From a virus (taxonomy: Duplodnaviria; Caudoviricetes): a stretch of 35,693 nucleotides of DNA. The position numbers were made by a program, and so were the translations under genes. Below the pieces are notes generated by a model, which did not search any database, was not told the DNA's origin, and saw nothing but the letters and a program-made list of their open reading frames with translations. Where the stretch lies: IMG/VR virus record IMGVR_UViG_3300032247_000044, positions 1-35,693 of that record. One strand, given 5' to 3'. Below are positions 11,044-32,708 of the stretch, piece after piece (the first letter of the stretch is position 1; every line of letters begins with the position of its first letter).

Positions 11044-11217
11044 ATGTCACCTTTTTACGAATTTAAGTGCGAAAAATGCTTGCGGCTAGAAGAGCATTAT
11101 TTCAGTTTCCAGGAGGAGCATAAAGTGGATTGCCCGAACTGCAAAGAGGGAATGAACAAAGTCATTCAGGCTACGCCGGCTATTTTTACAGGAGGTGGCT
11201 GGGGCGGAAAACCCTAG
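11044..11217 (+). CDS. FmdB-family zinc-ribbon protein, 57 aa (not in ORF track)
   Basis: MSPFYEFKCEKC...CPNC...MNKV...PAIFTGGGWGG; GGAGG RBS. Confidence 0.8.
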   Translation: MSPFYEFKCEKCLRLEEHYFSFQEEHKVDCPNCKEGMNKVIQATPAIFTGGGWGGKP

Positions 11218-11804
11218 CCATTAGTAATCCAAGACTTACCATGAGTATTTTGCAAAGCGAACTGGACAGCGCCGCCGGAGTAAATGTCGTATTTGATTGC
11301 TGTGTTTACAGCTGCTTCAACAATCTCTACAGCCTCTTCCCACTCATCAACATCAGCAACGCCAAGAGCGTCGGCAGCACCGAGGGCTAACTCCATACCT
11401 GTACCGGTTACATAAACGCGATTAGAAGTGCGCTCAATTCCGTAGGCCTCGTCAATTAAATACAAAACGCCATTAACGGCAATAATGAACTCGTTATCGT
11501 GCTGCGCAACATCGCCGTCGTCTTTCATGTCGTAACCGGCTGCTTGAAAACACTTACGCAAGGCCGGAACAAATTGCGTGACCATAAATTTATCAAGGTT
11601 GGAACGGGGCGGAGGAGGAGGAGTAAAAGAATGCTGAATCAGATTCATTCCGCGAACAAGACCCGCAGCTGCAACAAGGTATTTACCATTCTGAGCAATC
11701 TTGCCCATTGGAGAACAGTCGGCAGACAAATGGTAAGAAGTGGTTTGAGAATCCCCGGCAATTAGACACCAGTCTTCATGTTGAACGGCTATTAGTGTGG
11801 TCAT
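11214..11804 (-). CDS. Ntn-hydrolase, HslV/proteasome beta-subunit-like peptidase
   Basis: N-terminal M-T-T nucleophile, GDSQ, GKI, GTG (GSG equivalent) and DIYSGG motifs. Confidence 0.8.
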   Translation of the reverse strand: MTTLIAVQHEDWCLIAGDSQTTSYHLSADCSPMGKIAQNGKYLVAAAGLVRGMNLIQHSFTPPPPPRSNLDKFMVTQFVPALRKCFQAAGYDMKDDGDVAQHDNEFIIAVNGVLYLIDEAYGIERTSNRVYVTGTGMELALGAADALGVADVDEWEEAVEIVEAAVNTAIKYDIYSGGAVQFALQNTHGKSWITNG

Positions 11805-16378: not shown

Positions 16379-16645
16379 ATGCCATCAACAAAGAAAAACA
16401 TAGAAACAATAGAAAAAAAAGAAACTTATTACGACAAATACTATAAAAGTTTAGTCGGCGCAACAATTTTATCTTTTGATGGAATCAAAACAGATAATTT
16501 AGATGAAGAAGATTATCAAAGTGGATTCCCTACTTTTACAGTGCAGTTTGCCGATAAAACTATAAGTCAAATCGAAATCAGTCAAGACCCGGAAGGTAAC
16601 GGAGGAGGATTTATTTTCGGTTTAGCAATACCGGAAATAAAATAA
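16379..16645 (+). CDS. Hypothetical protein (AT-rich)
   Basis: RBS present; LVGATI...FP...SQDPEGNGGGFIF motif. Confidence 0.65.
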   Translation: MPSTKKNIETIEKKETYYDKYYKSLVGATILSFDGIKTDNLDEEDYQSGFPTFTVQFADKTISQIEISQDPEGNGGGFIFGLAIPEIK

Positions 16646-16652
16646 AATCATT

Positions 16653-17321
16653 ATGAAAACATTAAAATTATTAGATTTATACTGCAAAGCAGGAGGAGCA
16701 AGTCAAGGGTATCAAGAAGCAGGTTTCGAAGTTACGGGCGTGGACATAAAAAAACAAAAACGATACCCATTTGAATTTATTCAAGCAAACGCATTAGAAG
16801 TATTGGCAGATAAAAATTATTTATCTAATTTCGATGTTATCAGCGCCAGTCCTCCATGCCAGACTCATAGTATTACAAAACATTTACGAAACGCGCAAGG
16901 AAAAAATACACAAAAAATAGATTTAATTCCTCAAACTCGAACAGGTTTACAAGAATGGGGAGGTGTATACATTATTGAAAATGTACCCGGAGCTCCACTA
17001 ATTAACCCCGTAACATTATGTGGTTCTTCATTTAATTTGAAAGTGCGGCGACACAGGAATTTTGAATCAAACATTTCATTAAAAGGTTCTTTATGCAAAC
17101 ACAAAGAACAGGGAAAACCTATTGGTATTTATGGTTCGATGAAAGATGAAATTCCTAATGGAGGTCATACGGCAAAAACAATAGAAGAAGCAAGAATAGC
17201 CATGGGAATTCATTGGATGTTATGGAGTGAATTAGTAGAAGCAATACCGCCAATTTATACAAAAAATTTAGGAGAACAAATAATACAACAATACAAACCT
17301 CAAAATAGGGATACAAACTAA
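16653..17321 (+). CDS. Short C5 DNA cytosine methyltransferase
   Basis: Motif I LDLYCKAGG, GVDI, catalytic SPPCQ, ENV, RHRNFE, EAIPP. Confidence 0.85.
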   Translation: MKTLKLLDLYCKAGGASQGYQEAGFEVTGVDIKKQKRYPFEFIQANALEVLADKNYLSNFDVISASPPCQTHSITKHLRNAQGKNTQKIDLIPQTRTGLQEWGGVYIIENVPGAPLINPVTLCGSSFNLKVRRHRNFESNISLKGSLCKHKEQGKPIGIYGSMKDEIPNGGHTAKTIEEARIAMGIHWMLWSELVEAIPPIYTKNLGEQIIQQYKPQNRDTN

Positions 17322-18129: not shown

Positions 18130-18423
18130 ATGGCGCTACGAGAGACAAGCAACGAAGACCGGGAATACTCAGGCTGGAAAAATTACGCCAGCTGGAATGT
18201 AATGTTGTGGATAGATAACGACTATTCAACCTACCAAGCGGCCGTCTCGTTTATGAAAGATTACAAAGGCAAGCGACCTTACATAGATTTCTGCCGGGAT
18301 TCAGGATTAGACACGCAAGCAACGCCTGACCGCATTAAATGGATTTCTGCTAAATTGGATTATGAAGCGCTAAACTCGGCAATGTGGGAAATGGCACCCG
18401 AAGGAGCAAGGAAAATCCAATGA
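18130..18423 (+). CDS. Conserved phage hypothetical protein
   Basis: YSGWKNYASWNVMLWIDND...TPD..KW motif. Confidence 0.6.
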   Translation: MALRETSNEDREYSGWKNYASWNVMLWIDNDYSTYQAAVSFMKDYKGKRPYIDFCRDSGLDTQATPDRIKWISAKLDYEALNSAMWEMAPEGARKIQ

Positions 18424-18653
18424 CCGAGTACGACCCGCAAGTAAGAGATTTTATGAAGACGGCAGCGCAGCTGCTACGCAAAGGCGCAAGGAAAAAAGAC
18501 CCGGCGCTAATGTGGGCTATCTTGGTAAATCTCGACGGGGTCATGGAATCATTTATTGCGGCAGCTGAGGAGCAATACCTCGTCACAAAACTAAATAAAG
18601 AAATCGAACAGCGCGAAAAACAAGAAACCCGATTTACTCGAATCGAGCGTTAA
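18420..18653 (+). CDS. Hypothetical protein
   Basis: AAGGA RBS; ATGA overlap. Confidence 0.55.
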   Translation: MTEYDPQVRDFMKTAAQLLRKGARKKDPALMWAILVNLDGVMESFIAAAEEQYLVTKLNKEIEQREKQETRFTRIER

Positions 18654-18766
18654 AGAGGCCGCATACCTCTAAGTTTGGTCATGATGGCTGTCCTAACCTC
18701 AGCCTAGCCAATACTGCGCTCCCGGTTAGCCTCCGGGTCTTTCACCTTTCTACCGGAGGCAAAACC
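18654..18766. ncRNA. Structured intergenic element (candidate small RNA or terminator complex)
   Basis: Three hairpins: AGAGG/CCTCT, GGCTG/CAGCC, GCCTCCGG/CCGGAGGC; two have pyrimidine-rich loops. Confidence 0.35.
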
Positions 18767-18823
18767 CTAATTACGGATACAATTAACTCACTATTCGCTA
18801 TCACCAATCAAAGGGGAACGAAA

Positions 18824-18934
18824 ATGAATAGCAACGACAAAATGATTAGCCGAAAGAATTGCGCCTACGGCGCTTGGCATTACGGAGAGCAACTCTGCGG
18901 AGTCTGCGCGAAAGAGGCAAAGGCCTCCGTATAA
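18824..18934 (+). CDS. 36-aa Cys/His peptide (not in ORF track)
   Basis: AAAGGGG RBS; MNSNDKMISRKNCAYGAWHYGEQLCGVCAKEAKASV. Confidence 0.5.
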   Translation: MNSNDKMISRKNCAYGAWHYGEQLCGVCAKEAKASV

Positions 18935-19356
18935 GCGTTAAACGCGGAATCCTTGTAACAGCCATCTTGGTAGGATTTTGCAACACCATCTCAGTACCAG
19001 CTGCAACGCCGCTTATGATGACTATTGAGATGAAAGCGCAAGTGCACCCAAAACTCTACGCCTACTCTAAAGTAATGCGTCAATGGGGAAGCAAACGCGA
19101 ATACAACTGCCTAGTGCAACTGTGGGAACACGAAAGCCATTGGAACCCAAAAGCACATAACAAAGGCTCCGGCGCATTCGGGATTGCTCAATTCCTGCCT
19201 CAGACATGGTCTAATTACAATTACCCATACAAGCCAAAAGAGGCTACTATTCAGATTACGGCCGGATTGCGTTACATTACTAAGCGCTACGGCTCTCCAT
19301 GTAAGGCTTGGGGATTTTGGCAAAGAAATGCCAAAAGGGGAAATGCTTGGTATTAG
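18859..19356 (+). CDS. Lytic transglycosylase (SLT-like) with signal/anchor; start uncertain
   Basis: LWEHESHWNP (catalytic Glu), SGAFGIAQ, QI.AGLRYI..RYGSPC.AW...WY. Confidence 0.85.
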   Translation: MRLRRLALRRATLRSLRERGKGLRISVKRGILVTAILVGFCNTISVPAATPLMMTIEMKAQVHPKLYAYSKVMRQWGSKREYNCLVQLWEHESHWNPKAHNKGSGAFGIAQFLPQTWSNYNYPYKPKEATIQITAGLRYITKRYGSPCKAWGFWQRNAKRGNAWY

Positions 19357-19368
19357 CAAGGAGCAGCA

Positions 19369-19701
19369 ATGGACAAAGCGTTGGTCAAGATTGTCCAAGA
19401 GAGAGCTGCAAATTATTGCGAAGTATGCGGCGGCGCGGCCGAAGATAGCATGGCGCTACACCATAGAAAATTAAAATCAAGAGGAGGCAAAGACACAGCT
19501 GCAAACCTAATCAGCGTTCACCATAAGTGCCATAACCTCGGCACGAAAAGTATCCACCTGAACCCGGAATGGGCTGAAAACAAAGGCTACATGGTCGCAA
19601 GCTGGCAAGAGCCGCAGGAAGTACCTATAAGTTTGCCTGACGGCGGATTCGCATTACTATTAGACGACGGAACAAAGAAAAGACTAGGAGAAGGCAAATG
19701 A
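19369..19701 (+). CDS. HNH endonuclease
   Basis: CEVCG...LHHRK.KSRGG....NL...H..CH. Confidence 0.85.
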   Translation: MDKALVKIVQERAANYCEVCGGAAEDSMALHHRKLKSRGGKDTAANLISVHHKCHNLGTKSIHLNPEWAENKGYMVASWQEPQEVPISLPDGGFALLLDDGTKKRLGEGK

Positions 19702-20063
19702 GCATAAATCAAATCACCATCGAAGGTAATGTGGGAAGCGAACCGGAGCGTAAATTCACGCAAGATGAAACTCTAGTTACATTCTCACTCGCACATACAC
19801 CTTGGTCAAAGGCTAAAGGAGAAGGCGAAACAATTTGGTTCCGCGTTACATTTTGGGAGCGCAAAGCAGATTCCGTTATGGATAATGTGAATAAAGGCGA
19901 CAAGATATTGGTACAGGGAACATTAAAACAATCAACCTACACAAACAAAGAAGGCGAGACTAAAACATCGCTTGACATTACGGGTAGCCATTTCTCAATT
20001 ATGCCGCGCACCGGCAAGAGCCAAGCTGCGGTAGCGTCAGTAACGGAGGCAGCACCTTGGTAA
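19698..20063 (+). CDS. ssb: Single-stranded DNA-binding protein
   Basis: NQITIEGNVGSEPE...FSLA...WFRVTFW...KGDKILVQG.L; C-terminal APW. Confidence 0.92.
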   Translation: MSINQITIEGNVGSEPERKFTQDETLVTFSLAHTPWSKAKGEGETIWFRVTFWERKADSVMDNVNKGDKILVQGTLKQSTYTNKEGETKTSLDITGSHFSIMPRTGKSQAAVASVTEAAPW

Positions 20064-20257
20064 TACAAGAGTTTGTATTAACGGAAATGTCCTCGCAAGA
20101 AGTCGCGGATTACCTCGGAATTACTATTAACAATCTCCGACAGATTCAGCACCGAAAAACGCTGGCATGGAAGAGACGAGAATGGCGTAATGTGTATTAC
20201 GACCGAGCCGAAGTAGAGGCGTACAAAATCAAGCGCGAGGAGCGCAAGCACCGCTAA
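20057..20257 (+). CDS. Excisionase/MerR-like HTH DNA-binding protein
   Basis: GGAGG 7 nt before TTG; MSSQEVADYLGITINNLRQ...YYDRAEVEAY. Confidence 0.75.
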   Translation: MVIQEFVLTEMSSQEVADYLGITINNLRQIQHRKTLAWKRREWRNVYYDRAEVEAYKIKREERKHR

Positions 20258-20267
20258 TCTATGGGGC

Positions 20268-20516
20268 ATGGCTCTCAATACCGAAGAGGCCTCCGTCACC
20301 GACATCGACGAGGCCATGCGCCACATACAAAGTATGCTGGCGATACCCGGCATTGAAAAAACCCGGCGCAACTTGTTACTCGAAAGCCTAGATGATTTAT
20401 TAGACGCGCGTCTTGAAATTACGCAGCACGAACAATTCTTGCTAGAATTACAAACGGAGGCCGATAATGGAAATCAAAGAAGTAGCGTTGATAACGCTAA
20501 AGCCATACCCGAATAA
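20268..20516 (+). CDS. Hypothetical protein
   Basis: DIDEA.......LLESLDDLLDARL helical motif. Confidence 0.55.
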   Translation: MALNTEEASVTDIDEAMRHIQSMLAIPGIEKTRRNLLLESLDDLLDARLEITQHEQFLLELQTEADNGNQRSSVDNAKAIPE

Positions 20517-21078
20517 TCCGCGCAAAGGCAACATTGACTTAATTGCCAAAAGCCTAGAAACCTATGGGCAATACAAGCCAATTACAATCAACAAGCGGAC
20601 AAATGAAATCCTAGCCGGTAATCATACTTACGAAGCGGCTAAGAAATTAGGCTGGACAACAATACAAGCGACATACATTGACGCTGACGAAAACACAGCT
20701 GCAAAAATTGTGTTGATGGACAATAAGACCAGCGACGCAGGAGGATACGACGACGCTCAACTGCTCGGATTATTAGATTCATTGGGCGACCTAGACGCAA
20801 CCGGATACACAGACAAAGATTTACAAGAGCTGCAAGAATTATACGATTCACCGGAACCGGAATTAAAAAATACAGTAATGGGTAAAACGCTGGCGGATTG
20901 GCAAGAGACATTAGGGCAGCGCACTACAAGAATTATTATGTTCGATTACGACAAGCCTAGATACATGTGGGTGGCGGAAAAACTCGAACAATTTAGGAAT
21001 GAAAACGACATCGGCACAAACACCGAAGCGCTAATACGGCTTATTGAAAAGATTTCAGGAGAAGGAGCGCCGGCATGA
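20467..21078 (+). CDS. ParB/Srx-fold protein 1
   Basis: LKPYPNNPRKGNI..IAKSL..YGQYKPI...ILAGNHT..AA..LGW...DN motifs. Confidence 0.85.
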   Translation: MEIKEVALITLKPYPNNPRKGNIDLIAKSLETYGQYKPITINKRTNEILAGNHTYEAAKKLGWTTIQATYIDADENTAAKIVLMDNKTSDAGGYDDAQLLGLLDSLGDLDATGYTDKDLQELQELYDSPEPELKNTVMGKTLADWQETLGQRTTRIIMFDYDKPRYMWVAEKLEQFRNENDIGTNTEALIRLIEKISGEGAPA

Positions 21079-21710
21079 ATGCAATATCAGTAGCGATTGA
21101 CGAATTAAAGCCATACCCAAACAACCCACGCAGGGGAAATATTAAACTCATAGCAGAGTCATTAGCGGAATACGGCCAATACAAGCCAATAATTGTCAAT
21201 AAGTACAATAATCAAATACTAGTTGGTAATCACACGCACGCAGCTGCAAAATCTTTAGGCTGGAAAGAAATCGAAGTCTCTTACATCGAAATAGACGAAG
21301 AAACCGCAGCAAAGATTGTGTTAGTAGACAATAGAACCGGCGACCTAAGCGCATACGACAATAACGCGCTATTAAAATTACTCGAACGACTCAACGACCT
21401 TGAACATACGGGCTACGGCGATGATGAATACGATGATGTGTTGGCTAGAATTGAAGAAGAGAAAACGCCAAAAGTAATTGACGAATTGGCTAAAAACGGG
21501 CAGCAAGAGATTGCCTCACAAATAGCCGGATTAGCAGAGCGGTACAAGGCAGTAGACACAAAAGTATTTATGGTGGAATTAGAAAACGCAACATACATTT
21601 GGACTATTGAGCAATTAGGTAAATACCGGCTCAAAACAGGAGCGCTTAGCAACTCTGACGCGCTGGTAAAATTACTGGAAGAAAACTACGGCGAAAAGGC
21701 TCCGGAATGA
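21075..21710 (+). CDS. ParB/Srx-fold protein 2 (paralog)
   Basis: LKPYPNNPRRGNI..IAESL..YGQYKPI...ILVGNHT; full-length similarity to protein 1. Confidence 0.85.
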   Translation: MNAISVAIDELKPYPNNPRRGNIKLIAESLAEYGQYKPIIVNKYNNQILVGNHTHAAAKSLGWKEIEVSYIEIDEETAAKIVLVDNRTGDLSAYDNNALLKLLERLNDLEHTGYGDDEYDDVLARIEEEKTPKVIDELAKNGQQEIASQIAGLAERYKAVDTKVFMVELENATYIWTIEQLGKYRLKTGALSNSDALVKLLEENYGEKAPE

Positions 21711-22570
21711 AACTATCAGAATTACCTGTAATTAGAGTTAAGCGCGTAATCGGCGCAGAGGAAGCAACGGAATTAGTCGGCAAAACTGTACCTGACCTCG
21801 AACCGAATTGCCGCACAGCTGCATTGTTCATTGACGACGAAACCGAAGAGCCAATCCTCGCGTACATGCCAATGGAAGACGAAGTAAATCTATTGCGCGC
21901 GTCGGTACTCTCTATTAAATACGGAACTACAAAACGAGCAAGCACAGGAATGGAAAATCAATCCCGGACTTTCGGCATGGCTCCGCGCAAAGTATTTCAA
22001 CGCCGGGAGAGCTGCCGAACTACAACGCTGGCTAATGAACAACCCGAAGAGCATGCAGTATTAGTAGCGTTCGCAAAGAAATTCGGAGAAATGTTTAAGG
22101 AATTCGCACCGCACTTATTCGAGGCCGATGCGGAAGTATTAGAAAAAAGCGGAATCAGCAACGAATGGAAAATGACCGACGACGCATTATGGACAAGCGG
22201 AGTCATTAACCGAGCGTCTACGCTGCCATACCATCGAGACGGATTTAATTTCGCAACATGGAGCGCGATGCCGGTAGTCCGACGAGACATGAGAGGCGGA
22301 TACCTTAATTTCCCGGAATACGACCTCACTTGCGCGTGCAGAGATGGATGGGTCTTATTCTTCCCCGGCTACAAGTATGTACATGGAGTAACACCAATGC
22401 ACACTACGGCAAAAGACGGATACCGCTATTCAATCGTGTATTACGCACTACGCGGAATGAAAGACTGTTTCACATTCGCAGTAGAGACGGCAAAGGGAGC
22501 AGAAAACCGCACCAAGCGCGAAGAAAAAATGGCGGAAGACCTCAAAAGACCAATGAGCGCATGGGAGTAG
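21707..22570 (+). CDS. TET/JBP-family 2OG-Fe(II) dioxygenase
   Basis: YHRDGFN (HxD), GGYLNFPEY, HGVTP (distal His), RYSIVYY (2OG-binding RxS). Confidence 0.85.
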   Translation: MKLSELPVIRVKRVIGAEEATELVGKTVPDLEPNCRTAALFIDDETEEPILAYMPMEDEVNLLRASVLSIKYGTTKRASTGMENQSRTFGMAPRKVFQRRESCRTTTLANEQPEEHAVLVAFAKKFGEMFKEFAPHLFEADAEVLEKSGISNEWKMTDDALWTSGVINRASTLPYHRDGFNFATWSAMPVVRRDMRGGYLNFPEYDLTCACRDGWVLFFPGYKYVHGVTPMHTTAKDGYRYSIVYYALRGMKDCFTFAVETAKGAENRTKREEKMAEDLKRPMSAWE

Positions 22571-23619
22571 ATTACCGGAAGCCGGAATACAGAGAACAAG
22601 TATTCCAAGATTTCTACGAATTTCACTTGCGCTATCGCTCTCACCCCGGCTGTGTTTATTACCTAATGCCTTACCTGCGCGAAAAACTAAATTGGAACGA
22701 CGAAGAGGCGCTGTGGTTCGCATTCCTAAACGGCAATACACAAAACCCGGTGACCAGCTACATTCTGCATAAGCGATTCCCTAGGCCGGAGCAGCACAAA
22801 GAGTTAATTGCCTTCTACCGAGAGCATTACGCACGCCTAGAATTCGATACTGACCGCAGATACCATAAGAAATCGCTAGAAGACGCGATACAGAGTTACC
22901 TCGGCATGGTGGGAGATTCGCAAAAGGATTTTTGGTACGCGACAGCTGAACAGGGATTTACAATAATGTGGCACACAGCGAGACGAATTGCTACATTCGG
23001 CCGGCTCAGCGCGTTCTCTTACCTCGAATACCTACGAATCATGGGCGTACCATTCGACTGCGACACGCTATTTATCGAGGACATAAGCGGTTCACGCTCG
23101 CATCGCAACGGCCTATGCATAGTGGCTGGGCTAGATAAACACGATTGGCACAAATCTAACCCGGACTTTGACGGGAGATACAGCAACGAATTATTGCAAG
23201 GGCTGATTGTTAAAGGCGAAGAATTGCTAATACAGGCTAAAAACAGAGCAAAAGGAAAAGCATGGGAATACGATGTCTCATACTTCACTCTAGAATCTAC
23301 ACTCTGCACATACAAGAGCTGGCACAGACCAAACCGGCGCTACCCAAATGTGTATAACGACATGCTGGCCGGAAGAATTAAGAAAAACGAAGAAAATTGG
23401 CCGGAGGAAGATTTAAGTATCTTTTGGGAAGCAAGGCGCGATTGCCTACCGGAACACCTGCGTATTGAAGATAACCCTAACGACCTAGGGCTGCACCCAA
23501 TTAAACAAAATCATTATCGCTCAACCGGCCAAGTCATTATGATGGACAAGGAATACCCGGAGTACGCTAACGATTACAATGACGCAGTAGACGAAGGCAC
23601 AATTAAGGAATGGCTATGA
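22561..23619 (+). CDS. Amino acid:DNA transferase (aGPT-Pplase2/AADT, HhH-glycosylase-like fold)
   Basis: W.AFLNG.TQN, FDTDRRY.K, FGRLSAFSYLEY, SRSHRNGL, FTLESTLCTYK, RRYPNVY.D motifs; start moved to ATG 22561. Confidence 0.8.
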   Translation: MGVDYRKPEYREQVFQDFYEFHLRYRSHPGCVYYLMPYLREKLNWNDEEALWFAFLNGNTQNPVTSYILHKRFPRPEQHKELIAFYREHYARLEFDTDRRYHKKSLEDAIQSYLGMVGDSQKDFWYATAEQGFTIMWHTARRIATFGRLSAFSYLEYLRIMGVPFDCDTLFIEDISGSRSHRNGLCIVAGLDKHDWHKSNPDFDGRYSNELLQGLIVKGEELLIQAKNRAKGKAWEYDVSYFTLESTLCTYKSWHRPNRRYPNVYNDMLAGRIKKNEENWPEEDLSIFWEARRDCLPEHLRIEDNPNDLGLHPIKQNHYRSTGQVIMMDKEYPEYANDYNDAVDEGTIKEWL

Positions 23620-24653
23620 CTAACTCAATCTTTCCAGTATTGGGAATTAACCGAGACAAGGTCAAGTGGGAAGACCACATGTACGACCTAACGCCGGTGG
23701 AATTACGCGACGGAATACATTGGAAGAGAGAAGACTATTTCGCACCTCTAGGCTACGGCGGAATCAACGGAAGCAAGCTGCGCCAGTTGCTACACCTGAT
23801 TAGCAAACTAGACGCACCGGGAATTATTACGGGAGCAAGCGTGCTTAGTCCTCAACTCAGCATGGGAGCGCTAGTGGCCAAGCATTACGGCCTACCGATT
23901 ACCTGCGTATTGGGCGGAACAAAACCGGAAAGCGCAATTAAGCACGAAAATGTCGCTATCGCTCAGGAAGCCGGAGCAGAGTTTGTATTCGGCAAAGTGG
24001 CATACAATCCCGGCATACAAAGTAATGTAACGAAATTGTTATCATTCCCGGAGTACGAAGGCTACTACCGATTGAATTACGGAATTACAGTTCCGGATAA
24101 CGCGGAAGACGACGAAGTACGGGCATTCCACGAAGTAGGCGCGTATCAGGTACAAAACATTCCCGACGAAGTAACGCACCTAGCCATGACCGCAGGAAGC
24201 TGCAACAGCTGCGTAAGCGTTCTATACGGCCTCGCCAAATACAAAACAAACATTAAGAAGGTAACGCTATTCGGGATTGGTCCTACACGCCTAAGAATGA
24301 TTGAAGAGCGCTTAGCAAAGATTGAACGGGCAACGGGATTAGTAATCCGAGACAAGTATCGCCGGCGCTACATGCACCATAAAGACCTAGAGGCGGAACA
24401 TCAGACTGACGGGCAGATAGTCCTAATGCATTACGACCTACACGCGACTAAATTCAGCGCGTACACAGACAAAATGCCATTCAAGAAAAGCGGAATTGAC
24501 TTTCACCCTACATACGAAGGCAAAGCGCTCAATTACATGGAGAAGAATGCAGGGGCATTTGACTGGTATCACAATCCTGACGGCAAGACATTATTTTGGA
24601 TAGTTGGAAGCGAACCTAAACGGGAGGCAATGAAATGGACACTATCTACCTAA
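23616..24653 (+). CDS. PLP-dependent enzyme (fold type II), putative DNA-amino acid decarboxylase
   Basis: LTPVE....WKREDY......NGSKLRQ (PLP Lys), SPQ, QVQNIP, GSCNS, HPTYEGK, LFWIVG. Confidence 0.8.
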   Translation: MTNSIFPVLGINRDKVKWEDHMYDLTPVELRDGIHWKREDYFAPLGYGGINGSKLRQLLHLISKLDAPGIITGASVLSPQLSMGALVAKHYGLPITCVLGGTKPESAIKHENVAIAQEAGAEFVFGKVAYNPGIQSNVTKLLSFPEYEGYYRLNYGITVPDNAEDDEVRAFHEVGAYQVQNIPDEVTHLAMTAGSCNSCVSVLYGLAKYKTNIKKVTLFGIGPTRLRMIEERLAKIERATGLVIRDKYRRRYMHHKDLEAEHQTDGQIVLMHYDLHATKFSAYTDKMPFKKSGIDFHPTYEGKALNYMEKNAGAFDWYHNPDGKTLFWIVGSEPKREAMKWTLST

Positions 24654-25186
24654 TAGGGCAGCCGGGAAGCGGCAAAACAACCTTGACTAGGGAGTTCCAA
24701 AAGGATTGGGCGAAGATTAACCTCTACGACAAGCCATTTAAGTACCAAGAGTACGAAGCGCCTATGCTCGGAAAGGTCTACTCATTAGGCTGGGATAGAG
24801 AACACTTCGGAGGAACCGACACGCTAGGCAATACTGTAATTACACACATGAGCGGGTTCTACAAAAGCGCACATGAAGACGGAGCGACAATTTACGGAGA
24901 AGGCGACAGATTAGCGAGCGCAAGATTCTTCGACCTAGCCCGGCTATACGGAAAGTTGCACCTGTTCTACCTAACGACCAGCGACGAAGAAGCAGAGCGC
25001 CGGAGAGCTGCACGAAGCCAAGAAACCGGGAAAGCACAAAACCCATCATGGGCTAAAGGAAGAGCAACGAAGCACCGCAACCTCGCTAACGAATTCAACG
25101 CAATTCACTTACCCGGAGATAAGTCACCTAGCCAAATTACAGAGATTATGGCAGACTACTTATCTAAAGGAAAAGGAAACGCATGA
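24635..25186 (+). CDS. P-loop nucleotide/DNA kinase
   Basis: Walker A GQPGSGKT; FGGTDTL, EGDRL, RRAAR lid; context of base-modification operon. Confidence 0.78.
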   Translation: MDTIYLIGQPGSGKTTLTREFQKDWAKINLYDKPFKYQEYEAPMLGKVYSLGWDREHFGGTDTLGNTVITHMSGFYKSAHEDGATIYGEGDRLASARFFDLARLYGKLHLFYLTTSDEEAERRRAARSQETGKAQNPSWAKGRATKHRNLANEFNAIHLPGDKSPSQITEIMADYLSKGKGNA

Positions 25187-25653
25187 GCAGGAAAAAAGCA
25201 CCATCACCGGCGGTCTTGGATAAGGAAATCAAGATTATTGAACTACGCAGAGCCGGCGTAACATGGGAAAAGATTGCGCAGGAAGTCGGGTTCCGGAACG
25301 CTAGTGGCGCTTACAAGATGTATCAGAGGGCGGCAGAGCGCATGGTACGGCCGCACCTAGAGGAATACCGCGACATGCAGTTAGACCGGCTAGAGCGTAT
25401 GCACATGGCTGTTTGGCCTAGAGCGAAAGACGGCGACCTACGGGCGATCGATACAGCGCTGAGGATTGCAGACAGAGAAGCGAACCTATTAAATCTAAAC
25501 GCACCAATTAAGGTACAAGCGGAGGTAACAGTCTATGAGGGTCAGCAACTCGTTGAACACACAGCCCGAATTATTGAACTCATTAGACAATCTCGCGGCG
25601 AGACGGGCAACATGGGAGGCAATACTAGCGAGACCAGAGCAATTACCGACTAA
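25183..25653 (+). CDS. terS: Terminase small subunit
   Basis: HTH ELRRAGVTWEKIAQEVG; LDRLE...W......D..AI...L.I..R...L; precedes TerL. Confidence 0.78.
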   Translation: MSRKKAPSPAVLDKEIKIIELRRAGVTWEKIAQEVGFRNASGAYKMYQRAAERMVRPHLEEYRDMQLDRLERMHMAVWPRAKDGDLRAIDTALRIADREANLLNLNAPIKVQAEVTVYEGQQLVEHTARIIELIRQSRGETGNMGGNTSETRAITD

Positions 25654-26902
25654 CACTAACGATTGGTCAGTATGGCTATACCTAGCCGGGCGCGGAGCAG
25701 GAAAGACGCGCACAGCTGCAGAATGGATAGTGTGGCAAGCGCTTACACAGAATTGGACACGCTGGGCTGTAATTGCACCGACATTTGGCGATGTGAGAGA
25801 TACATGCGCGGAAGGCGAGAGCGGGCTAATACCAATTCTGCACCAATACGGAGCGCTAGATTATTACAACCGCTCAACAGGAGACATACGACTGACTAAC
25901 GGAAGCCGAATAAAGTTATTCTCGGCTGACGAACCTGACCGATTGCGTGGTCCGCAACATCATGGTGCTTGGTGCGACGAACTCGCGGCGTGGCGCTACC
26001 CGGATACATACGACCAGCTGCAATTCGGATTACGATTGGGCGAACACCCGAAGACGATTATTACGACGACTCCAAGGCCGGTGGCGCTAATCCGTCAGTT
26101 GGTAGCGAAGACAGATGGCTCCGTGAAAGTGATTAGAGGAAGCACATTTGATAACGCTAAAAACCTAGCGCCATCAGCCCTAGTGGAATTACAAGCGCGT
26201 TACAACGGAACAAGACTCGGCCGGCAGGAGTTATACGGCGAGATACTAGACGATGTAGAAGGCGCACTATGGACTAAGGGAGTAATTGACCGGAACAGAA
26301 TTGAACAAGTGCCACCGCTAGCACGCATTACAGTAAGTATTGACCCGGCAGTAACAAACACAAAAGACAGCGACGAGACAGGAATTATGGTCTGCGGAAG
26401 CGACGCAGCTGGCAACGGGTATGTGATTGCTGACTACTCATTTAAGGGTTCACCTTACGAATGGGCGCAAAAGGCGGTAGATGTATTCCGGGAACATAAA
26501 GCAGACTCAATCCTCGTTGAAGTAAATCAGGGAGGCGACATGGTGAGCGCGGTGCTACGACAAGTAGACATGAGCCTACCTATTCAAGAAATTAGGGCGC
26601 ACATCGGAAAGAAGCTGAGAGCGGAACCGGTAGCGGCGATGTACGAACAGGGCAGAATCCACCATGTAGGGCAATTCGACAAACTAGAAGAGCAAATGAC
26701 GACATGGACACCGGAAAGTCCGGACTCACCTGACCGGCTAGACGCGATGGTACAAGCGTTCAGTAGCCTAATTGGAACGAGCAGCGCGGCAACATACTTC
26801 TCTGCGCTCGCTAACTTCTGTACCGGTTGCGGATTACCAATGCCGAAGAGCGCATCGCGTTGTTTTAAGTGCGGAACAGCGATGACCAGTAATTCAGCAT
26901 AA
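25535..26902 (+). CDS. terL: Terminase large subunit
   Basis: AGRGAGKT Walker A, LRGPQ..GAWCDE Walker B, TTTP, RQELYGE, IDPA/DETG/EVNQGG/DRLDA nuclease motifs. Confidence 0.95.
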   Translation: MRVSNSLNTQPELLNSLDNLAARRATWEAILARPEQLPTNTNDWSVWLYLAGRGAGKTRTAAEWIVWQALTQNWTRWAVIAPTFGDVRDTCAEGESGLIPILHQYGALDYYNRSTGDIRLTNGSRIKLFSADEPDRLRGPQHHGAWCDELAAWRYPDTYDQLQFGLRLGEHPKTIITTTPRPVALIRQLVAKTDGSVKVIRGSTFDNAKNLAPSALVELQARYNGTRLGRQELYGEILDDVEGALWTKGVIDRNRIEQVPPLARITVSIDPAVTNTKDSDETGIMVCGSDAAGNGYVIADYSFKGSPYEWAQKAVDVFREHKADSILVEVNQGGDMVSAVLRQVDMSLPIQEIRAHIGKKLRAEPVAAMYEQGRIHHVGQFDKLEEQMTTWTPESPDSPDRLDAMVQAFSSLIGTSSAATYFSALANFCTGCGLPMPKSASRCFKCGTAMTSNSA

Positions 26903-26991
26903 TTGCGCATAACCGAAATAAGTCTGCATAATTCGCGCAGATTGTCGCTAATTGTCAGTAATTCGCATAATTGTGCATAAGGAAAATAAGA
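26888..26991. repeat. Degenerate ~10-bp-period (GCA)TAATT array
   Basis: TAA(TT) cores at 26890, 26900, 26910, 26919, 26929, 26949, 26959, 26968, 26978, 26987, plus a CAGATT variant near 26939. Confidence 0.7.
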
Positions 26992-27030
26992 AAAATATCG
27001 GTATGCTTAGCACCGAACAAAGGAGTCCTA

Positions 27031-27381
27031 GTGGCGGTTGAATACGATACCTCGATAAATCAGGGCGCTGATTGGTACATCAATTTTGTATACCAAGATA
27101 CAAGCACAAATACGCCTATTAACATCACCGGCTACACAGCTGCACTCCAATTACGCTCATTACCAAGCGACAATACGGCAGTATTGAGCCTAACAAGTCC
27201 GTCGGGCGGAATTACTATTACTGGAACGCAAGGCCTCGTAGCGGTACACGCCACAGCTGCACAAACCGGCGCGATTGTGGCTGGATATTATTATTACGAT
27301 TTAGAAATCACTTCCCCGGCAAGCATTGTGACGAGATTGGTACAAGGTCAGATACTCGTTAGCGCTCAGGTAACGCGATGA
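27031..27381 (+). CDS. Ig-like virion adaptor protein (BppU/LtfC-like)
   Basis: AAGGAG RBS before GTG 27031; INQGAD...PINITGYTA..QLR...YYYDLEI...RLVQG.......VTR. Confidence 0.65.
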   Translation: MAVEYDTSINQGADWYINFVYQDTSTNTPINITGYTAALQLRSLPSDNTAVLSLTSPSGGITITGTQGLVAVHATAAQTGAIVAGYYYYDLEITSPASIVTRLVQGQILVSAQVTR

Positions 27382-28376
27382 CGGAGACTGTAATTGTTCA
27401 ACTCGTAGACCCTACGACGCTGGTAGTAACGCCGCAAGAAGCGACGATTGTAGTAAGCAGTCCGGGTCCGCAAGGCGCTAACGGCTCGGCTACTGTATCT
27501 ATTGGAACGACTACTACATTAGCCGGAGGCAGTTCGGCTACAGTAACAAACACCGGCAGCGGTACAGCGGCAATACTTAATTTCGGCATACCGCAGGGCA
27601 TACAAGGCACTACGGGCGCTACGGGTGCAACGGGCGCAACAGGAGCAAAAGGCGACACCGGCACAGCTGCAACAATTACCGCCGGAAGTACGACAACACT
27701 TAGTCCGGGAACATCTGCAACTGTAACAAATAGTGGTACAAGCAGCGCAGCGGTATTTGATTTCGGTATTCCACAGGGCGCTAAAGGCGACACCGGCGCA
27801 ACAGGAGCAGCGGGTACAAACGGAACAAACGGCACAGCTGCAACTATCGCTGTAGGAACAACAACAACATTAACACCGGGTACATCGGCAACAGTAAGCA
27901 ATTCAGGTACCAGCGGAGCGGCTGTATTTAACTTCGGAATCCCGCAGGGTACAGCCGGCACAAATGGCACCAATGGAACTAACGGAACAGCGGCTACTGT
28001 CGCAGTAGGTACTACAACTACCCTAGCGGCCGGCTCATCAGCGACAGTAACGAATAGCGGAACATCGGGCGCGGCCGTATTTAACTTCGGCATACCGCAA
28101 GGAGCGCAAGGAGCAACGGGAGCGACCGGCGCAGCTGGAACTAACGGCACAAATGGTACGGCTGCTACGATTGCAGTAGGTACGACAACTACCGGAGCAG
28201 CGGGAAGCGCAGCCTCAGTAACAAACAGCGGTACATCGAGTGCGGCAACATTTAATTTCACTATTCCGCAAGGAGTAGCGGGTACTAACGGCACGAACGG
28301 AACAAACGGCACTAACGGAACAAACGCAGTCTACGATACAGACCAAGCGGTTATCTCAATGCAAGTATTCGGATAG
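27378..28376 (+). CDS. Collagen-like repeat fibre protein
   Basis: Five copies of AT(V/I)xxGxTTT...ATVTNSGTS.AAVFNFGIPQG separated by Gly-X-Y tracts. Confidence 0.8.
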   Translation: MTETVIVQLVDPTTLVVTPQEATIVVSSPGPQGANGSATVSIGTTTTLAGGSSATVTNTGSGTAAILNFGIPQGIQGTTGATGATGATGAKGDTGTAATITAGSTTTLSPGTSATVTNSGTSSAAVFDFGIPQGAKGDTGATGAAGTNGTNGTAATIAVGTTTTLTPGTSATVSNSGTSGAAVFNFGIPQGTAGTNGTNGTNGTAATVAVGTTTTLAAGSSATVTNSGTSGAAVFNFGIPQGAQGATGATGAAGTNGTNGTAATIAVGTTTTGAAGSAASVTNSGTSSAATFNFTIPQGVAGTNGTNGTNGTNGTNAVYDTDQAVISMQVFG

Positions 28377-28384
28377 GAAGATAA

Positions 28385-28747
28385 ATGGCTACTTATACAA
28401 AGGTACTTCTCTCAGGCTCAACGCAAGGTCAGCCGATTACAGTAGTAGCAACGGCTTCTACCGGTACGACTATTCACGCTACCGGCACATCATCAGCAAC
28501 TATTGACGAAGTATGGCTATACGCTAACAACACTTCTACATCGCCGGTCTTGCTTACAGTTCAATTCGGCGGTACTGCATCTCCTCAAAACGCCAAACCT
28601 ATTACGCTCGCTCCTCAATCGGGCGATGTATTGGTAGTAGCGGGATTACCATTAACCGGAACCGGAGCAGCTGCAAATACAATTTACGCATTCGCTGGAA
28701 CTGCCTCAGTAATTACCATTTCGGGCTATGTGAATCGAATAGCGTAA
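28385..28747 (+). CDS. Small beta-rich virion protein
   Basis: DEVWLYANN...LTVQFGG...YAFA....VITISGYVNRI. Confidence 0.65.
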   Translation: MATYTKVLLSGSTQGQPITVVATASTGTTIHATGTSSATIDEVWLYANNTSTSPVLLTVQFGGTASPQNAKPITLAPQSGDVLVVAGLPLTGTGAAANTIYAFAGTASVITISGYVNRIA

Positions 28748-29695
28748 ATGGCTAATCCAAACCGAAGAAGCCAAGCCGGTTCTCCCGTCTCAACGGGAAT
28801 GCAAAGTGCGGCGGTCACTCCATTCGCAAATACATCATGGATATTGCCTTATGGATTACAGCTGCGTCAAACAATTAACGCCGGAACAACATCAGTAACT
28901 ATCCCTGCGGGAATTACTTGGGTCTATGCCATTTGCGTAGGCGGCGGAGGAGGCGGCGGAGCGGGTTGCGCTGGCGGAGCGGGTGGCCTCGCATGGGGTT
29001 GGACTCTCGCTAACAGCACTTGCATAGTGGGAACGGGTGGCGCTGCCTCAACAACCGGCAACTACACACGATACGGCCACATAGTTGCAGGAGGCGGAGG
29101 CGCTTCTAGCGGAGTAGGCGGCAATACGGGCGGAGCTGGATTTCTCGGTGGTGGCGGCGGCGGTTCTACGGGCGGTACTGGTGGTGCTGGCTCACTTAAC
29201 TATTACGGAATACCGGGAGGATTTGGTATTACTGGAAATGTGGCCGGAACAACTGGCGCTGGCGGCGGAGGAGGCGGCGGAATATTGGTAACAAGCGGCG
29301 CAGATAGCGTGGCGTCAAATGGGGGTAACGGAATTTCAGGCGGCGGAGGTGGCTCAATAAACCGAACTACTATTCTCACCGGTTCTACTACTGGCGGTAA
29401 CGGCGGGTCAGGAATAATTGGTGGAGGTGGCGGCGCTGTGGGTACTACCTATACCGGTATTCGCATAGGCGGTACTGGCGGCAACGGAATCAATATCCTT
29501 ACGGGCGTTACAACTACTGGTGGTGCCGGAACTACCGGAACAAACGCAAATGGCGCTGGTGGTGGCGGAGGAGGCGTAGCGGGCAATGGTTCAGCTGCAG
29601 TAACAACTACAGGAGGTACTGGCGGCCTCGGTGGAGGTGGTGGCGGCGGCAATAGCGGAACTGGCGGCGCTGGAATCCTCTACATCTTTTACTAG
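28748..29695 (+). CDS. Glycine-rich virion/adhesin-like protein (paralog 3)
   Basis: PYGLQLRQTI..GTTSVTIPAGITWVYAICVGGGG...GILYIFY. Confidence 0.75.
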   Translation: MANPNRRSQAGSPVSTGMQSAAVTPFANTSWILPYGLQLRQTINAGTTSVTIPAGITWVYAICVGGGGGGGAGCAGGAGGLAWGWTLANSTCIVGTGGAASTTGNYTRYGHIVAGGGGASSGVGGNTGGAGFLGGGGGGSTGGTGGAGSLNYYGIPGGFGITGNVAGTTGAGGGGGGGILVTSGADSVASNGGNGISGGGGGSINRTTILTGSTTGGNGGSGIIGGGGGAVGTTYTGIRIGGTGGNGINILTGVTTTGGAGTTGTNANGAGGGGGGVAGNGSAAVTTTGGTGGLGGGGGGGNSGTGGAGILYIFY

Positions 29696-29704
29696 GAGCA
29701 AACA

Positions 29705-30775
29705 ATGACAGTATCTATTTACAGCAATTCATCATTTGCCGATGTACCTTATGGATTAAAGCTGCAACAAACCTTTAGCACTCCGGGAACATTCTCGGTC
29801 ACCATTCCAACTGGAATCCAGCGAGTCTATGCAGTCTGTATTGGCGGAGGCGGTGCCGGTGCTTCTATTTCTGCGCCAATGACCATTACAAACGCAAGCG
29901 GCAGCGGTACAACTGTTACCTATACGGCTAACAACACGCTCGTTGCAGGGCAGTATGTAAATATTTCAGGAGTAACTCCTTCTGCTTACAATATAGTTAC
30001 ACAACAAGTTCTTTCTGCTGGTCTTTCTTCTACTCAATTCGCGGTTACAAATACTGCAACGGGAGTTTATGTATCAGGCGGCACTGCCAATTTTGGATAC
30101 TTTGCGGGCGGCGGTGGGGCTGGTGGCTATTCTGCGGGTTGGACTTGGGCTACAAATACAGTCACAGTCGGAACTGGTGCTACCGGTTCAAGCACGAACG
30201 GCGCGGGCGCTCTAGGAACAGGCTCGCAATACGGACTGGTCTTTGCCGGCGGTGGTTCGGGTGCAACTATTACCGGTGGTGGCGGAGCTGCCGGAGCAAC
30301 AACTAACACAGCACCTTCTACCAGCGCAACTGCAAGTTATACAGGAGCGCCGGCCGGCGGTAGCGGTTTGGCTGCTTATGCAAGCGCCGGAGGTAATGGA
30401 AACGCGGCCAGTCTTGCCGGAGTTTCAACGGGCGGCGGTGGTCCTTCTTTTACTTCTATCAATAGTGGAACTCTAACTGGTTACGCTGGCGCTCGCGGTC
30501 TAATCTGCGGTGGCGGTAGTGCCACAATGACTTCTGGACTTGCAACAGGTGGTGCAGGTGGCACAGGCGATTTCTATGCTGGCGGTACTGGCTCAACTGG
30601 AACTGGATTTACATTCGGAGCAGGTGGCGGTGGCGCAGGATATACAAGCGCAGGTTCTAACGCTTCAGGAAATAACGGAGGCAACGGCGGTTCGGGTGGC
30701 GGCGGTGGAGGCGGTGCAAATAACGGCGGAACAGCTGGCAGCGGTGGTAACGGCGTCGTTTATCTTTATTATTAA
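29705..30775 (+). CDS. Glycine-rich virion/adhesin-like protein (paralog 4) with inserted beta domain
   Basis: PYGLKLQQT...VTIPTGIQRVYAVCIGGGG...GNGVVYLYY. Confidence 0.75.
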   Translation: MTVSIYSNSSFADVPYGLKLQQTFSTPGTFSVTIPTGIQRVYAVCIGGGGAGASISAPMTITNASGSGTTVTYTANNTLVAGQYVNISGVTPSAYNIVTQQVLSAGLSSTQFAVTNTATGVYVSGGTANFGYFAGGGGAGGYSAGWTWATNTVTVGTGATGSSTNGAGALGTGSQYGLVFAGGGSGATITGGGGAAGATTNTAPSTSATASYTGAPAGGSGLAAYASAGGNGNAASLAGVSTGGGGPSFTSINSGTLTGYAGARGLICGGGSATMTSGLATGGAGGTGDFYAGGTGSTGTGFTFGAGGGGAGYTSAGSNASGNNGGNGGSGGGGGGGANNGGTAGSGGNGVVYLYY

Positions 30776-30833: not shown

Positions 30834-32708
30834 ATGGGTCTACGCGACCGAATCGCAAAAACAATAGCAGGTACAAATGTAGAGAAGGCTCCAAATCTTC
30901 CAGCCGGTTCGGTAACGATGACCGAACAACAGATGCGTAACGCAGTACCGGGCGCTATTGGCCAAAACTACGGAACAGTAGAACCTCTCCCACGAAATCC
31001 CCTATTAGCAGGAGTTCCATTCGGTCCCGGAATCCCAATTACTCCCGGAGCGATTAACCCGGTAGACCCATTAACCGGAAGACCAGCACCGCGCCGCTAC
31101 GAATACCAAGTAGCGCAAAACATCAACATCACCGAGACAAAATTAGTTCCATTTAAGACTCTACGCGCCGCAGCTGACCAAATCGATATCCTGCGACGCT
31201 GCGTAGAAGTAATTAAAGGCAAGATTAGCGGCCTAGAGTGGGATATTGTTCTAGGGCAAGACGCTAGCGAAAAAATTATGAGCGACAGCGGCGGAGACCA
31301 TGTCCGCGCAATGGTAAAAGCACGCGAAGATTTTAACGACGACATTTACCGGCTCAAAACATTTTGGGAAAACCCGGACAAGAGCAACGGCCTCACATTC
31401 ACAGATTGGCTCAACATCGCGCTAGAGGAATTGCTCGTAATTGACGCGCTTGCAATTTGGCCACAGAAAACTGTAGGCGGAGACCTATACGGCTTGCAGA
31501 TTCTAGACGGAGCAACGATTAAGCCAATGCTCGACGACCGGGGAATGCGGCCGCAAGCACCGCAAGCTGCATACCAGCAAATCCTATACGGCTTCCCACG
31601 CGCAGAATTCAGCGCTAATCAGGATGACCCTAAAGCTGACGGCGAATTCACATCTGACGACCTTGCATACCTAGTTAAAAACCGCCGGACAACAAGCGTC
31701 TACGGCTATTCACCGGTAGAGCGCTCATTACCACTAGCGGACATTTACCTACGCAGACAACAATGGATTAGAGCGGAATACACCGACGGAGTATTGCCGG
31801 AACTAATGTTCTCAACTGACGCAACATGGGGAACAAACCCTGACCTATTGCGGGCATGGGAAAATATCCTTAACGACGACTTAGCCGGACAAACAGAGCA
31901 ACGCAAACGCGCACGCTTATTGCCAACGGGCATTACACCAATTACAAACGACTCATACGGCGAGAAGTTTAAAGATACGCTCGACGATTTCCTTATTGCG
32001 TCAATCTGCGGTCATTTCGGCGTACAACCTACTGAAATTGGATACTCTCCAAAAGGCGGAGGCCTCGGCGGTAAAGGATTTGAAGAAGGAAAGCAGACAA
32101 GCGCGGAAGTAGTCGGTATTCAACCGATTGTAAATTGGCTTAACAAGATGATTAGTAACCTTTCATACGCTTACCTCGGAATGCCACGCGAATTGGAATT
32201 CAAGTTGATGGTAAGCAAGAGTCAAGAAGACGAAGCGAGCGCACGCAAGGCGCAGATTGAAGTTACCAGCGCAGGAAAGACTGTAAACGAGCGCCGGAGC
32301 GAATTGGGATTACCACTACTCGATACGCCGCAAGCAGACATGCCAATTCTCGTAAGCGGAAGCAGCGTGTACCTGTTCTCACCTGACGGAATGATTAACC
32401 CGGCAACGCAGGGAAGCGCACCGCAATTAGAAGAAGACGGGGAGACGGCAATACCCGGAACCGAAGCACCGAACACAGCTGCACCGGAAGCCAAGCCAAA
32501 AGAAGGAGAAATCCCGGAAGGGAAAGACACCTCTAACGAAGTAGCGGCCGAAGTCAAGGCATTTATGAAATGGGCGGCTAAAGGTCAGCGCAAGCGGGAA
32601 TTCGAATTCAAGATGATTGACCCTATTGTGGGGGAAGCGCTTAACCGGTGCGCAGTAGAAGGCGACCTCGATACGGCTAGGTCATTGGCAAAGGCTTACC
32701 TAGCATGA
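30834..32708 (+). CDS. Portal protein
   Basis: GGGAG RBS; LDGATIKP..D, YGYSPVE, ICGHFGVQPTEIG, TVNERRSELGLP portal motifs. Confidence 0.9.
   Translation: MGLRDRIAKTIAGTNVEKAPNLPAGSVTMTEQQMRNAVPGAIGQNYGTVEPLPRNPLLAGVPFGPGIPITPGAINPVDPLTGRPAPRRYEYQVAQNINITETKLVPFKTLRAAADQIDILRRCVEVIKGKISGLEWDIVLGQDASEKIMSDSGGDHVRAMVKAREDFNDDIYRLKTFWENPDKSNGLTFTDWLNIALEELLVIDALAIWPQKTVGGDLYGLQILDGATIKPMLDDRGMRPQAPQAAYQQILYGFPRAEFSANQDDPKADGEFTSDDLAYLVKNRRTTSVYGYSPVERSLPLADIYLRRQQWIRAEYTDGVLPELMFSTDATWGTNPDLLRAWENILNDDLAGQTEQRKRARLLPTGITPITNDSYGEKFKDTLDDFLIASICGHFGVQPTEIGYSPKGGGLGGKGFEEGKQTSAEVVGIQPIVNWLNKMISNLSYAYLGMPRELEFKLMVSKSQEDEASARKAQIEVTSAGKTVNERRSELGLPLLDTPQADMPILVSGSSVYLFSPDGMINPATQGSAPQLEEDGETAIPGTEAPNTAAPEAKPKEGEIPEGKDTSNEVAAEVKAFMKWAAKGQRKREFEFKMIDPIVGEALNRCAVEGDLDTARSLAKAYLA

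Follow-up and report, generated by a model that had tools for sequence, protein, structure and literature searches.

The virus record IMGVR_UViG_3300032247_000044 (35,693 bases, 93% complete), which was analysed over its whole length and is called the window here, carries a cassette of six genes in the order ParB-ParB-TET-AADT-PLP enzyme-kinase, all on the + strand and followed by the terminase genes. They encode two ParB-like proteins, a TET/JBP Fe(II)/2-oxoglutarate (2OG) dioxygenase, an amino acid:DNA transferase (AADT), a fold-II pyridoxal phosphate (PLP) enzyme and a P-loop kinase. We estimate a probability of about 0.75 that these overlapping genes specify, as a whole route, a fully post-replicative hypermodification of thymine. 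The original prediction had proposed such a route, started by a dioxygenase, from the last four genes alone; the route is well supported, and the four genes turned out to be intact and overlapping according to their open reading frames (ORFs) and to profile and fold searches. Nevertheless, two ParB genes that overlap into TET and a C5-cytosine methyltransferase-like gene had been overlooked, and the unit comprises six genes rather than four.

The proposed pathway would modify freshly replicated phage DNA just ahead of its packaging, the packaging link being read from gene order only. TET, switched on by one or both ParB-like proteins, would turn a sequence-limited subset of thymines into 5-hydroxymethyluracil (5hmU), a step that has been shown for distant clade C1 homologs (PMC13229309) and is inferred for the enzyme of the window. 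The kinase would then generate 5-phosphomethyluracil, a reaction demonstrated with kinases of clades 1 and 2 and extended here to clade 3. Subsequently, C249 of the AADT would attack C6, expel the phosphate and attach an amino acid by its side chain, in line with the AADT step demonstrated for ViI, M6 and PaMx11, and the PLP enzyme would strip the carboxyl group to leave a primary amine, as shown for ViI gp226. Host thymine and host polymerase would be enough for the whole pathway. The best single guess for the product, which would take rather more than half of the above probability and by itself falls short of even odds, is the 5-(2-aminoethoxy)methyldeoxyuridine (5-NeOmdU) of ViI, formed via O-seryl-thymidine; the aminoethoxymethyl-type base proposed at the outset thus keeps its place, with less certainty, because the donor positions of the AADT differ from those of ViI.

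The six genes and their predicted products

Successive genes from ParB1 through the small terminase gene all overlap, by 4 to 19 bases per junction (Table 1), and the terminase genes are placed identically after the cassette in relatives. The region 19300-27000 was also found, with 4 differences, on a single contig of another assembly, which may derive from the same sample.

Table 1. Positions of the cassette genes, the adjoining terminase genes and the methyltransferase-like gene in the window
Feature	Position	Strand	Length and assignment
ParB-like protein 1	20467..21078	+	203 aa; Pfam ParB_N E 1.5e-6
ParB-like protein 2	21075..21710	+	211 aa; Pfam ParB_N E 1.6e-6
TET/JBP Fe(II)/2OG dioxygenase	21707..22570	+	287 aa; Pfam Tet_JBP E 6.8e-9
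Amino acid:DNA transferase (AADT/aGPT-Pplase2)	22561..23619	+	352 aa; Pfam ADDT E 2.1e-19
Fold-II PLP enzyme	23610..24653	+	347 aa; 39.4% to ViI gp226
P-loop kinase clade 3 (PF18751)	24635..25186	+	183 aa; Pfam Ploopntkinase3 E 1e-22
Probable terminase small subunit	25183-25653	+	assigned by position; ATGA overlap with kinase
Terminase large subunit	to 26902	+	Pfam Terminase_6N/6C
C5-cytosine methyltransferase-like gene, outside cassette	16653-17321	+	Pfam DNA_methylase E 1.1e-6

Both ParB-like proteins gave Pfam ParB_N matches above the cut-off and proved to be paralogs (44% identical in an alignment of 20 sequences) that consist of an N-terminal ParB domain, a linker and a short domain at the C-terminus; alignment and length gave no sign of a central DNA-binding domain. 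The second gene shares ATGA overlaps with the first and with TET. For comparison, 47 viral loci with this TET (55-95% TET identity) were collected, which are kin, some of them near-identical, and represent few events rather than 47 independent ones. A ParB gene lies directly 5' of TET in 42 of these loci, the remaining five ending at a contig edge, and two ParB genes are present in 15. Related phage T-dioxygenases have been reported to require ParB for activity on double-stranded DNA (O'Toole et al. 2026, PMC13229309), from which a ParB-like protein is likely to be the activator of TET. For the same reason, the co-expression of only the four originally named genes would probably fail.

The TET protein scored 35.6 bits against Pfam Tet_JBP (PF12851; cut-off 34.9), and its iron and 2OG residues H176, D178, H226 and R240 were invariant in all 15 aligned relatives. 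Its structural model, with a mean predicted local distance difference test score (pLDDT) of 73, matched the folds of CcTet, NgTET1 and TET2, the best Foldseek matches being CcTet and NgTET1 (E 4e-10 to 1e-8). The protein is 51% identical to Tonitrus gp3 and 45% to Nigel gp2, and a C-terminal extension of 33 residues past C254, with a helix predicted at 252-280, aligns with clade C1-type proteins. The PHROGs label 'queuine tRNA-ribosyltransferase' was ruled out by the fold, the iron triad and the Pfam match. T oxidation by ParB-dependent phage enzymes has been demonstrated in vivo and in vitro (PMC13229309), and we predict that the TET of the window is an actinophage-lineage enzyme that converts T to 5hmU on DNA.

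The AADT scored 70.6 bits against Pfam ADDT (PF18724; cut-off 26.2), and its E245 and C249 align with E243 and C247 of PaMx11 gp46, the latter being the catalytic cysteine (PMC11472151). A TTG start at 22330 was discarded, as it would run 240 bases inside TET and homologs begin at the ATG at 22561. ViI gp247 is the nearest characterised enzyme (27.6% identity, E 6e-26); similarity to M6 gp51 and PaMx11 gp46 was not significant, and a sequence search of PDB gave no match at E 1. In a tree of 17 rows, which carries a long-branch warning, the AADT and gp247 form a 100/99 clade, within which the subfamily of the window stands as a separate supported clade. Positions C+1 and C+4 and a downstream Tyr/Asp have been described to set the donor of these enzymes (Li et al. 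2026, PMC13458397). Among the best 120 of 1,943 homologs of the AADT, all 120 have Thr at C+1, 101 have Ser and 19 have Gly at C+4, and all 120 possess the Tyr of amino acid-using enzymes rather than the Asp of diamine-using ones. C+1 is Lys in glycine enzymes and Gly in diamine enzymes, and the donor-selecting positions of the window AADT match no characterised enzyme. The donor is therefore likely an amino acid, perhaps not serine, because the Tyr is invariant but C+1 and C+4 differ from those of ViI.

The PLP enzyme resembles ViI gp226 (39.4% identity, E 8e-76) and showed no significant similarity to M6 gp52; its Pfam PALP match (E 8e-4) is under the cut-off, as is that of gp226 itself. The ViI-like assignment of the AADT and the PLP enzyme made in the original prediction thus holds by identity and tree. 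K56 aligns with K92 of gp226, the proposed aldimine lysine (Lee et al., PMC8989533), its motif is kept in all 120 homologs listed, and a second possible ATG lies at 23616. The enzyme is predicted to decarboxylate the amino-acid adduct. This decarboxylation requires a free alpha-amine, which M6 provides via a radical S-adenosylmethionine (SAM) isomerase and ViI via an O-linked serine (Lee et al., PMC8989533), and the donor of the window AADT should be side-chain-linked because no radical SAM isomerase was found here. The kinase is weakly similar to characterised kinases (PaMx11 gp49, E 0.009) and is predicted to act on 5hmU in DNA. Its PHROGs label 'terminase small subunit' was rejected, since Pfam disagrees and a separate gene occupies the small-subunit position.

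Source of the hydroxymethyl handle and competing explanations

Scans of the main ORFs of the window with Pfam (54 ORFs) and PHROGs (53 ORFs) found no thymidylate synthase, deaminase, radical SAM enzyme or DNA polymerase, in agreement with what had been noticed before, and family searches detected no thymidylate synthase, ThyX or radical SAM enzyme in the record. A search for a dUMP hydroxymethylase, recommended in the original prediction, was equally negative in the record and in 20 related records (thymidylate synthase in 0/20, 8 of these 100% complete) and also in Zemanar, and the same search recovered the hydroxymethylase in the four controls M6, ViI, PaMx11 and Montesquieu. ThyX and radical SAM enzymes were absent from all five records searched, among them three complete genomes that carry all six cassette genes. 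As had been supposed, the window lacks mainly structural genes: the missing block corresponds in one complete relative to the head-to-tail structural genes (connector, tail tube, neck and unassigned genes).

The C5-methyltransferase-like gene could in principle provide another substrate. It encodes a compact protein of 222 aa, lies 4.4 kb upstream of TET and has a GC content of 0.34, with 0.21 at third codon positions (GC3) vs 0.42-0.53 in the cassette. No homolog was found in four close relatives, three of them complete and with the same cassette, and a C5-methyltransferase family search, which was not checked against the compact gene of the window, was positive in 1 of the 20 related records. 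Because the methyltransferase is absent from relatives that keep the cassette, thymine is the likely substrate of TET, and of the two bases originally proposed, T or 5-methylcytosine (5mC), the latter is unlikely as the main route. The gene stands, together with an ORF of unknown function, in a low-GC patch (16379-17321; 0.32-0.34) that is probably a recent gain, since the methyltransferase is missing from close relatives.

Several other explanations were weighed against this thymine route. The smaller share of its own probability, and a tentative one, goes to a version in which the donor of the AADT is threonine, homoserine, cysteine or a diamino acid, attached by the side chain, and decarboxylation gives an undescribed base. 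The Thr at C+1, unlike the Lys, Gly or Trp of characterised enzymes, the low identity to gp247, the separate clade of the subfamily and the report that two AADTs 35% alike take different donors (PMC13458397) speak for this version; the PLP enzyme, however, is far closer to ViI gp226 (39%) than to M6 gp52, which suggests a similar adduct, and gp247 remains the nearest characterised AADT, with a one-residue insertion at the donor motif of the ViI alignment that adds some doubt to the C+1/C+4 comparison. It is unlikely that the pathway halts before its last step or is in part inactive, with virions that contain 5hmU, 5-phosphomethyldeoxyuridine or the carboxylated adduct and with the kinase or the PLP enzyme otherwise employed next to the terminase. 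In seven of the 47 related loci, five with 88-90% TET identity, the kinase is the only gene that separates TET from the terminase genes, phage Vincenzo has kinase and PLP homologs with no TET or AADT found, and T-containing restriction-type sites are still purged from the window (ACGT 0 vs 83 expected and GATC 5 vs 68 by a Markov model). Nonetheless, the AADT and PLP genes occur together, overlapping and with their catalytic residues kept, in all ten loci of the window type, and Montesquieu carries the AADT-PLP-clade 3 kinase trio near its hydroxymethylase.

A handle placed on 5mC made by a phage or host methyltransferase, leading to cytosine hypermodification, is highly improbable. The methyltransferase-like gene of the window and the comparable oxidation of 5mC and T by 5mYOX176 in vitro (PMC13229309) would permit it, but the distance from TET, the base composition and the sparse distribution of that gene among relatives argue otherwise, and the characterised AADTs and kinases act on uracil derivatives in the literature covered; 5-hydroxymethylcytosine (5hmC) may be a minor side product. 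Hardly any weight falls on an unseen hydroxymethylase that supplies 5-hydroxymethyldeoxyuridine (5hmdU) from the nucleotide pool and makes TET incidental: the record is 93% complete, but neither thymidylate synthase nor ThyX was found in three relatives that share the cassette and are 100% complete, the thymidylate synthase search recovered all four controls, no phage DNA polymerase was detected, and TET-AADT fusions exist.

The thymine route must also face observations that weigh against it. Towards 56 clade C1-type loci, fetched by the clade C1 motif and including the 5mYOX182 contig, TET shows at most 22-26% identity with matches in 45, and none to 5mYOX182 at E 1e-3; on these comparisons it does not cluster with the tested clade C1 enzymes, and three motifs of its lineage are absent from all 12 supplementary files of O'Toole et al. 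(PMC13229309). The region of the variable insert, which was essential in the 5mYOX enzymes tested (PMC13229309), is about 25-45 residues shorter in TET than in clade C1-type proteins. According to the same report, several ParB/5mYOX pairs yielded 0% 5hmU when assayed, as did the second ParB alone in the single two-ParB case seen there. As regards the later steps, the best family of the kinase is PF18751, and those of M6 gp54 and ViI gp243 are PF18748 and PF18747, respectively; the ViI and Bue1 enzymes have Trp at C+1 and Lys at C+4 vs Thr and Ser in the window AADT; mycobacteriophage Zemanar has the AADT subfamily of the window with no PLP gene in its cassette; and in phage Vincenzo, where a clade 3 kinase and a PLP homolog are kept, searches detected neither TET nor AADT, the ADDT search having also missed the known AADT of Montesquieu. 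The purging of ACGT and GATC implies that some sites may go unprotected by the modification, in keeping with the sequence-context restrictions described for T-oxidising phage enzymes (PMC13229309; PMC6449724).

Relation to known systems

With the 5mYOX clade C1 systems, such as 5mYOX176/ParB176 (PMC13229309), the cassette shares a ParB that lacks a DNA-binding domain directly upstream, the HxD..H..R centre, the C-terminal extension past the last conserved Cys, the association with genes for AADT, PF18751 kinase and terminase, and the absence of an adjacent C5-methyltransferase. It differs from them by a separate actinophage lineage (22-26% identity), a much shorter insert, two ParBs and a PLP gene, the last being present in 0/56 clade C1-type loci and not mentioned in the covered text of that report, which also describes no step downstream of T oxidation. 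In the ViI pathway, 5-NeOmdU is made by the kinases gp67/gp243, the serine transferase gp247 and the decarboxylase gp226 (Lee et al., PMC8989533). Although ViI provides the closest AADT and PLP enzyme, with the aldimine Lys kept and no radical SAM isomerase, it obtains 5hmdU by means of a thymidylate synthase-family hydroxymethylase together with a polymerase of its own, the genes involved are dispersed, gp243 belongs to PF18747, and the window AADT lacks the gp247-type pocket at C+1 and C+4. The 5-(2-aminoethyl)deoxyuridine (5-NedU) pathway of Pseudomonas phage M6 follows the same logic of kinase, AADT and PLP decarboxylase, but it needs the radical SAM enzyme gp53, has the glycine-type Lys at C+1, and its gp51 and gp52 are not significantly similar to the window proteins. 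The phage C5-methyltransferase/TET systems of clades A/B that act on 5mC have a cognate C5-methyltransferase (Burke et al. 2021, PMC8256090), and none such lies beside the window TET. Taken together, the cassette would combine the action of a ParB-dependent T-dioxygenase with tailoring as in ViI; its sequence sets it apart from clade C1, and its starting step and donor pocket set it apart from the ViI pathway.

Of the 103 records with this TET, the neighbourhoods of 12 cultured phages were examined for comparison. The actinobacteriophages Tonitrus, Zemanar, Nigel, Kharcho, Wooper, MO526, Acadian and Altadena have the same TET lineage (42-51%), and among the cultured neighbourhoods a ParB lies upstream in 10/12, with kinase and terminase genes downstream in most. 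No PLP gene was found in the 12 neighbourhoods by annotation, with which Pfam scans of most unannotated slot genes agree, and nucleoside data for cultured actinobacteriophages with this TET were not found in the literature. The AADT of Zemanar is 46% identical to that of the window and has the same pocket signature, Kharcho has two ParBs and a slot with the kinase only, and the ParB, TET, AADT and kinase of Tonitrus have been annotated as a thymidine hypermodification system (PMC11955845).

The newness claimed originally has to be narrowed. Some contigs without a hydroxymethylase were reported to encode TET_JBP instead (Lee et al., PMC8989533), and sequences 22-25 in Fig. 2 of that paper show, as a prediction, TET_JBP in place of the dUMP hydroxymethylase beside T-hypermodifying genes; O'Toole et al. 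2026 (PMC13229309) showed the first step, the oxidation of T, for phage enzymes that depend on ParB and whose genes are linked to those of AADTs and kinases. That figure and Fig. 3 of O'Toole et al. may contain the exact gene set of the window or place its TET lineage. The full combination is uncharacterised in the literature searched, in which no reconstitution of TET, kinase, AADT and PLP enzyme was found; the principle itself is published and would be no surprise to specialists. If the route is correct, a complete amino-acid-type hypermodification of thymine would be performed on ordinary DNA with the nucleotide pool unchanged, and a small phage relying on the host polymerase could carry a modification known from large phages; depending on the donor used by this large AADT subfamily, the base may be a new one. 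A wider account, which we consider doubtful, would make the short-insert actinophage TET, switched by ParB1/ParB2, the start of a branch in which an AADT with its own pocket and the PLP enzyme give an undescribed amine base, the slot being rapidly swapped between amino acid, phosphate only and base-J-like sugar among close freshwater-type phages, with perhaps 5mC or 5hmC in the genome too. The six small genes of the thymine route can be tested in E. coli, and Zemanar (TET and AADT subfamily), Kharcho (two ParBs, kinase only) and Montesquieu (AADT, PLP and clade 3 kinase) could serve as cultured stand-ins.

Slot variation and other features of the record

Five alternative gene sets occupy the slot from TET to the terminase genes across the 47 loci: AADT, PLP enzyme and kinase as in the window (10, one incomplete), another AADT with a flavin adenine dinucleotide (FAD) oxidoreductase and kinase (19), the kinase alone (7), a protein of glycosyltransferase (GT) fold GT-B with a HAD-like gene (7) and a second GT-like gene (4, on weak evidence). 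The kinase is absent from all 11 GT versions and was seen in 35 of the 36 others, one locus being incomplete. A sugar joins the hydroxyl directly, whereas transfer by an AADT depends on phosphate as the leaving group; the missing kinase of the GT versions therefore fits all slot sets acting on one hydroxymethyl handle. Neither kind of GT-like protein reached the threshold of any family in Pfam or PHROGs. The GT-B protein was identified by fold (model pLDDT 67), with T4 beta-glucosyltransferase among the matches, and the second protein gave a weak Pfam match (E 0.064) and has what we take to be a GT-B-type motif. TET followed by GT-B and HAD-like genes or by the second GT-like gene was observed at L013:2117-3486, L015:10472-11841 and L038:917-1897 and in L020, L025 and L042, and such loci without kinase are candidates for a base-J-like sugar modification of thymine. 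At L019:6401-8687, L026:2741-4995 and L146:5861-8180, with Microbacterium phage MO526 as cultured example, TET is followed by an AADT with Asp at C+1, the FAD oxidoreductase and the kinase, which would follow a PaMx11-like logic with a different pocket.

Further candidate tailoring sets were seen in cultured phages. LilMcDreamy (L154:1784-3759) has TET, AADT, an Asp/Arg beta-hydroxylase-domain protein and the kinase. In Mycobacterium phage Vincenzo (L155:1-3152), a ParB-like N-terminus is fused to a SAM-dependent methyltransferase-like domain and followed by the PLP homolog, the clade 3 kinase and the terminase, and one may speculate that a SAM-derived amino-acid adduct is decarboxylated there. 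Natural fusions comprise four of TET with AADT (P0178, P0244, P0245, P0246) and two of TET with a glycosyltransferase (P0243, P0247), most of them known from one contig each; one TET-AADT fusion is 36% identical to the TET and 60% to the AADT of the window. In sequencing run X2, one contig leaves TET at window positions 22566-22570 into a different gene start and another joins AADT from a different sequence, so that the TET/AADT junction varies within one sample.

Several 6-mers are absent from the window in addition to the words named above. In three relatives with the same cassette, GATC was 0 in the stretches counted and ACGT was kept, and loci with other cassette types purge AGCT, CCGG or GCGC, which suggests a recent host-specific restriction pressure. 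An actinobacterial host is suggested by a WhiB gene and by the matches of the TET lineage, of which 95/103 are actinobacteriophage records. A promoter scan of 18400-27100 gave 8 sites vs 10.7 expected by chance. A GP88 gene, present in two relatives, was dismissed as a requirement of the pathway, since neither the window nor one complete relative has it. Collagen-like and glycine-rich genes lie between the terminase and portal genes (26971-30775) in a block missing from two of three complete relatives, and a MuF-like minor head protein (32705-34201) has a C-terminal ADP-ribosyltransferase-like domain. The gene at 11214-11804, the only one on the minus strand there, encodes a proteasome/HslV-type peptidase domain and is kept in complete relatives.

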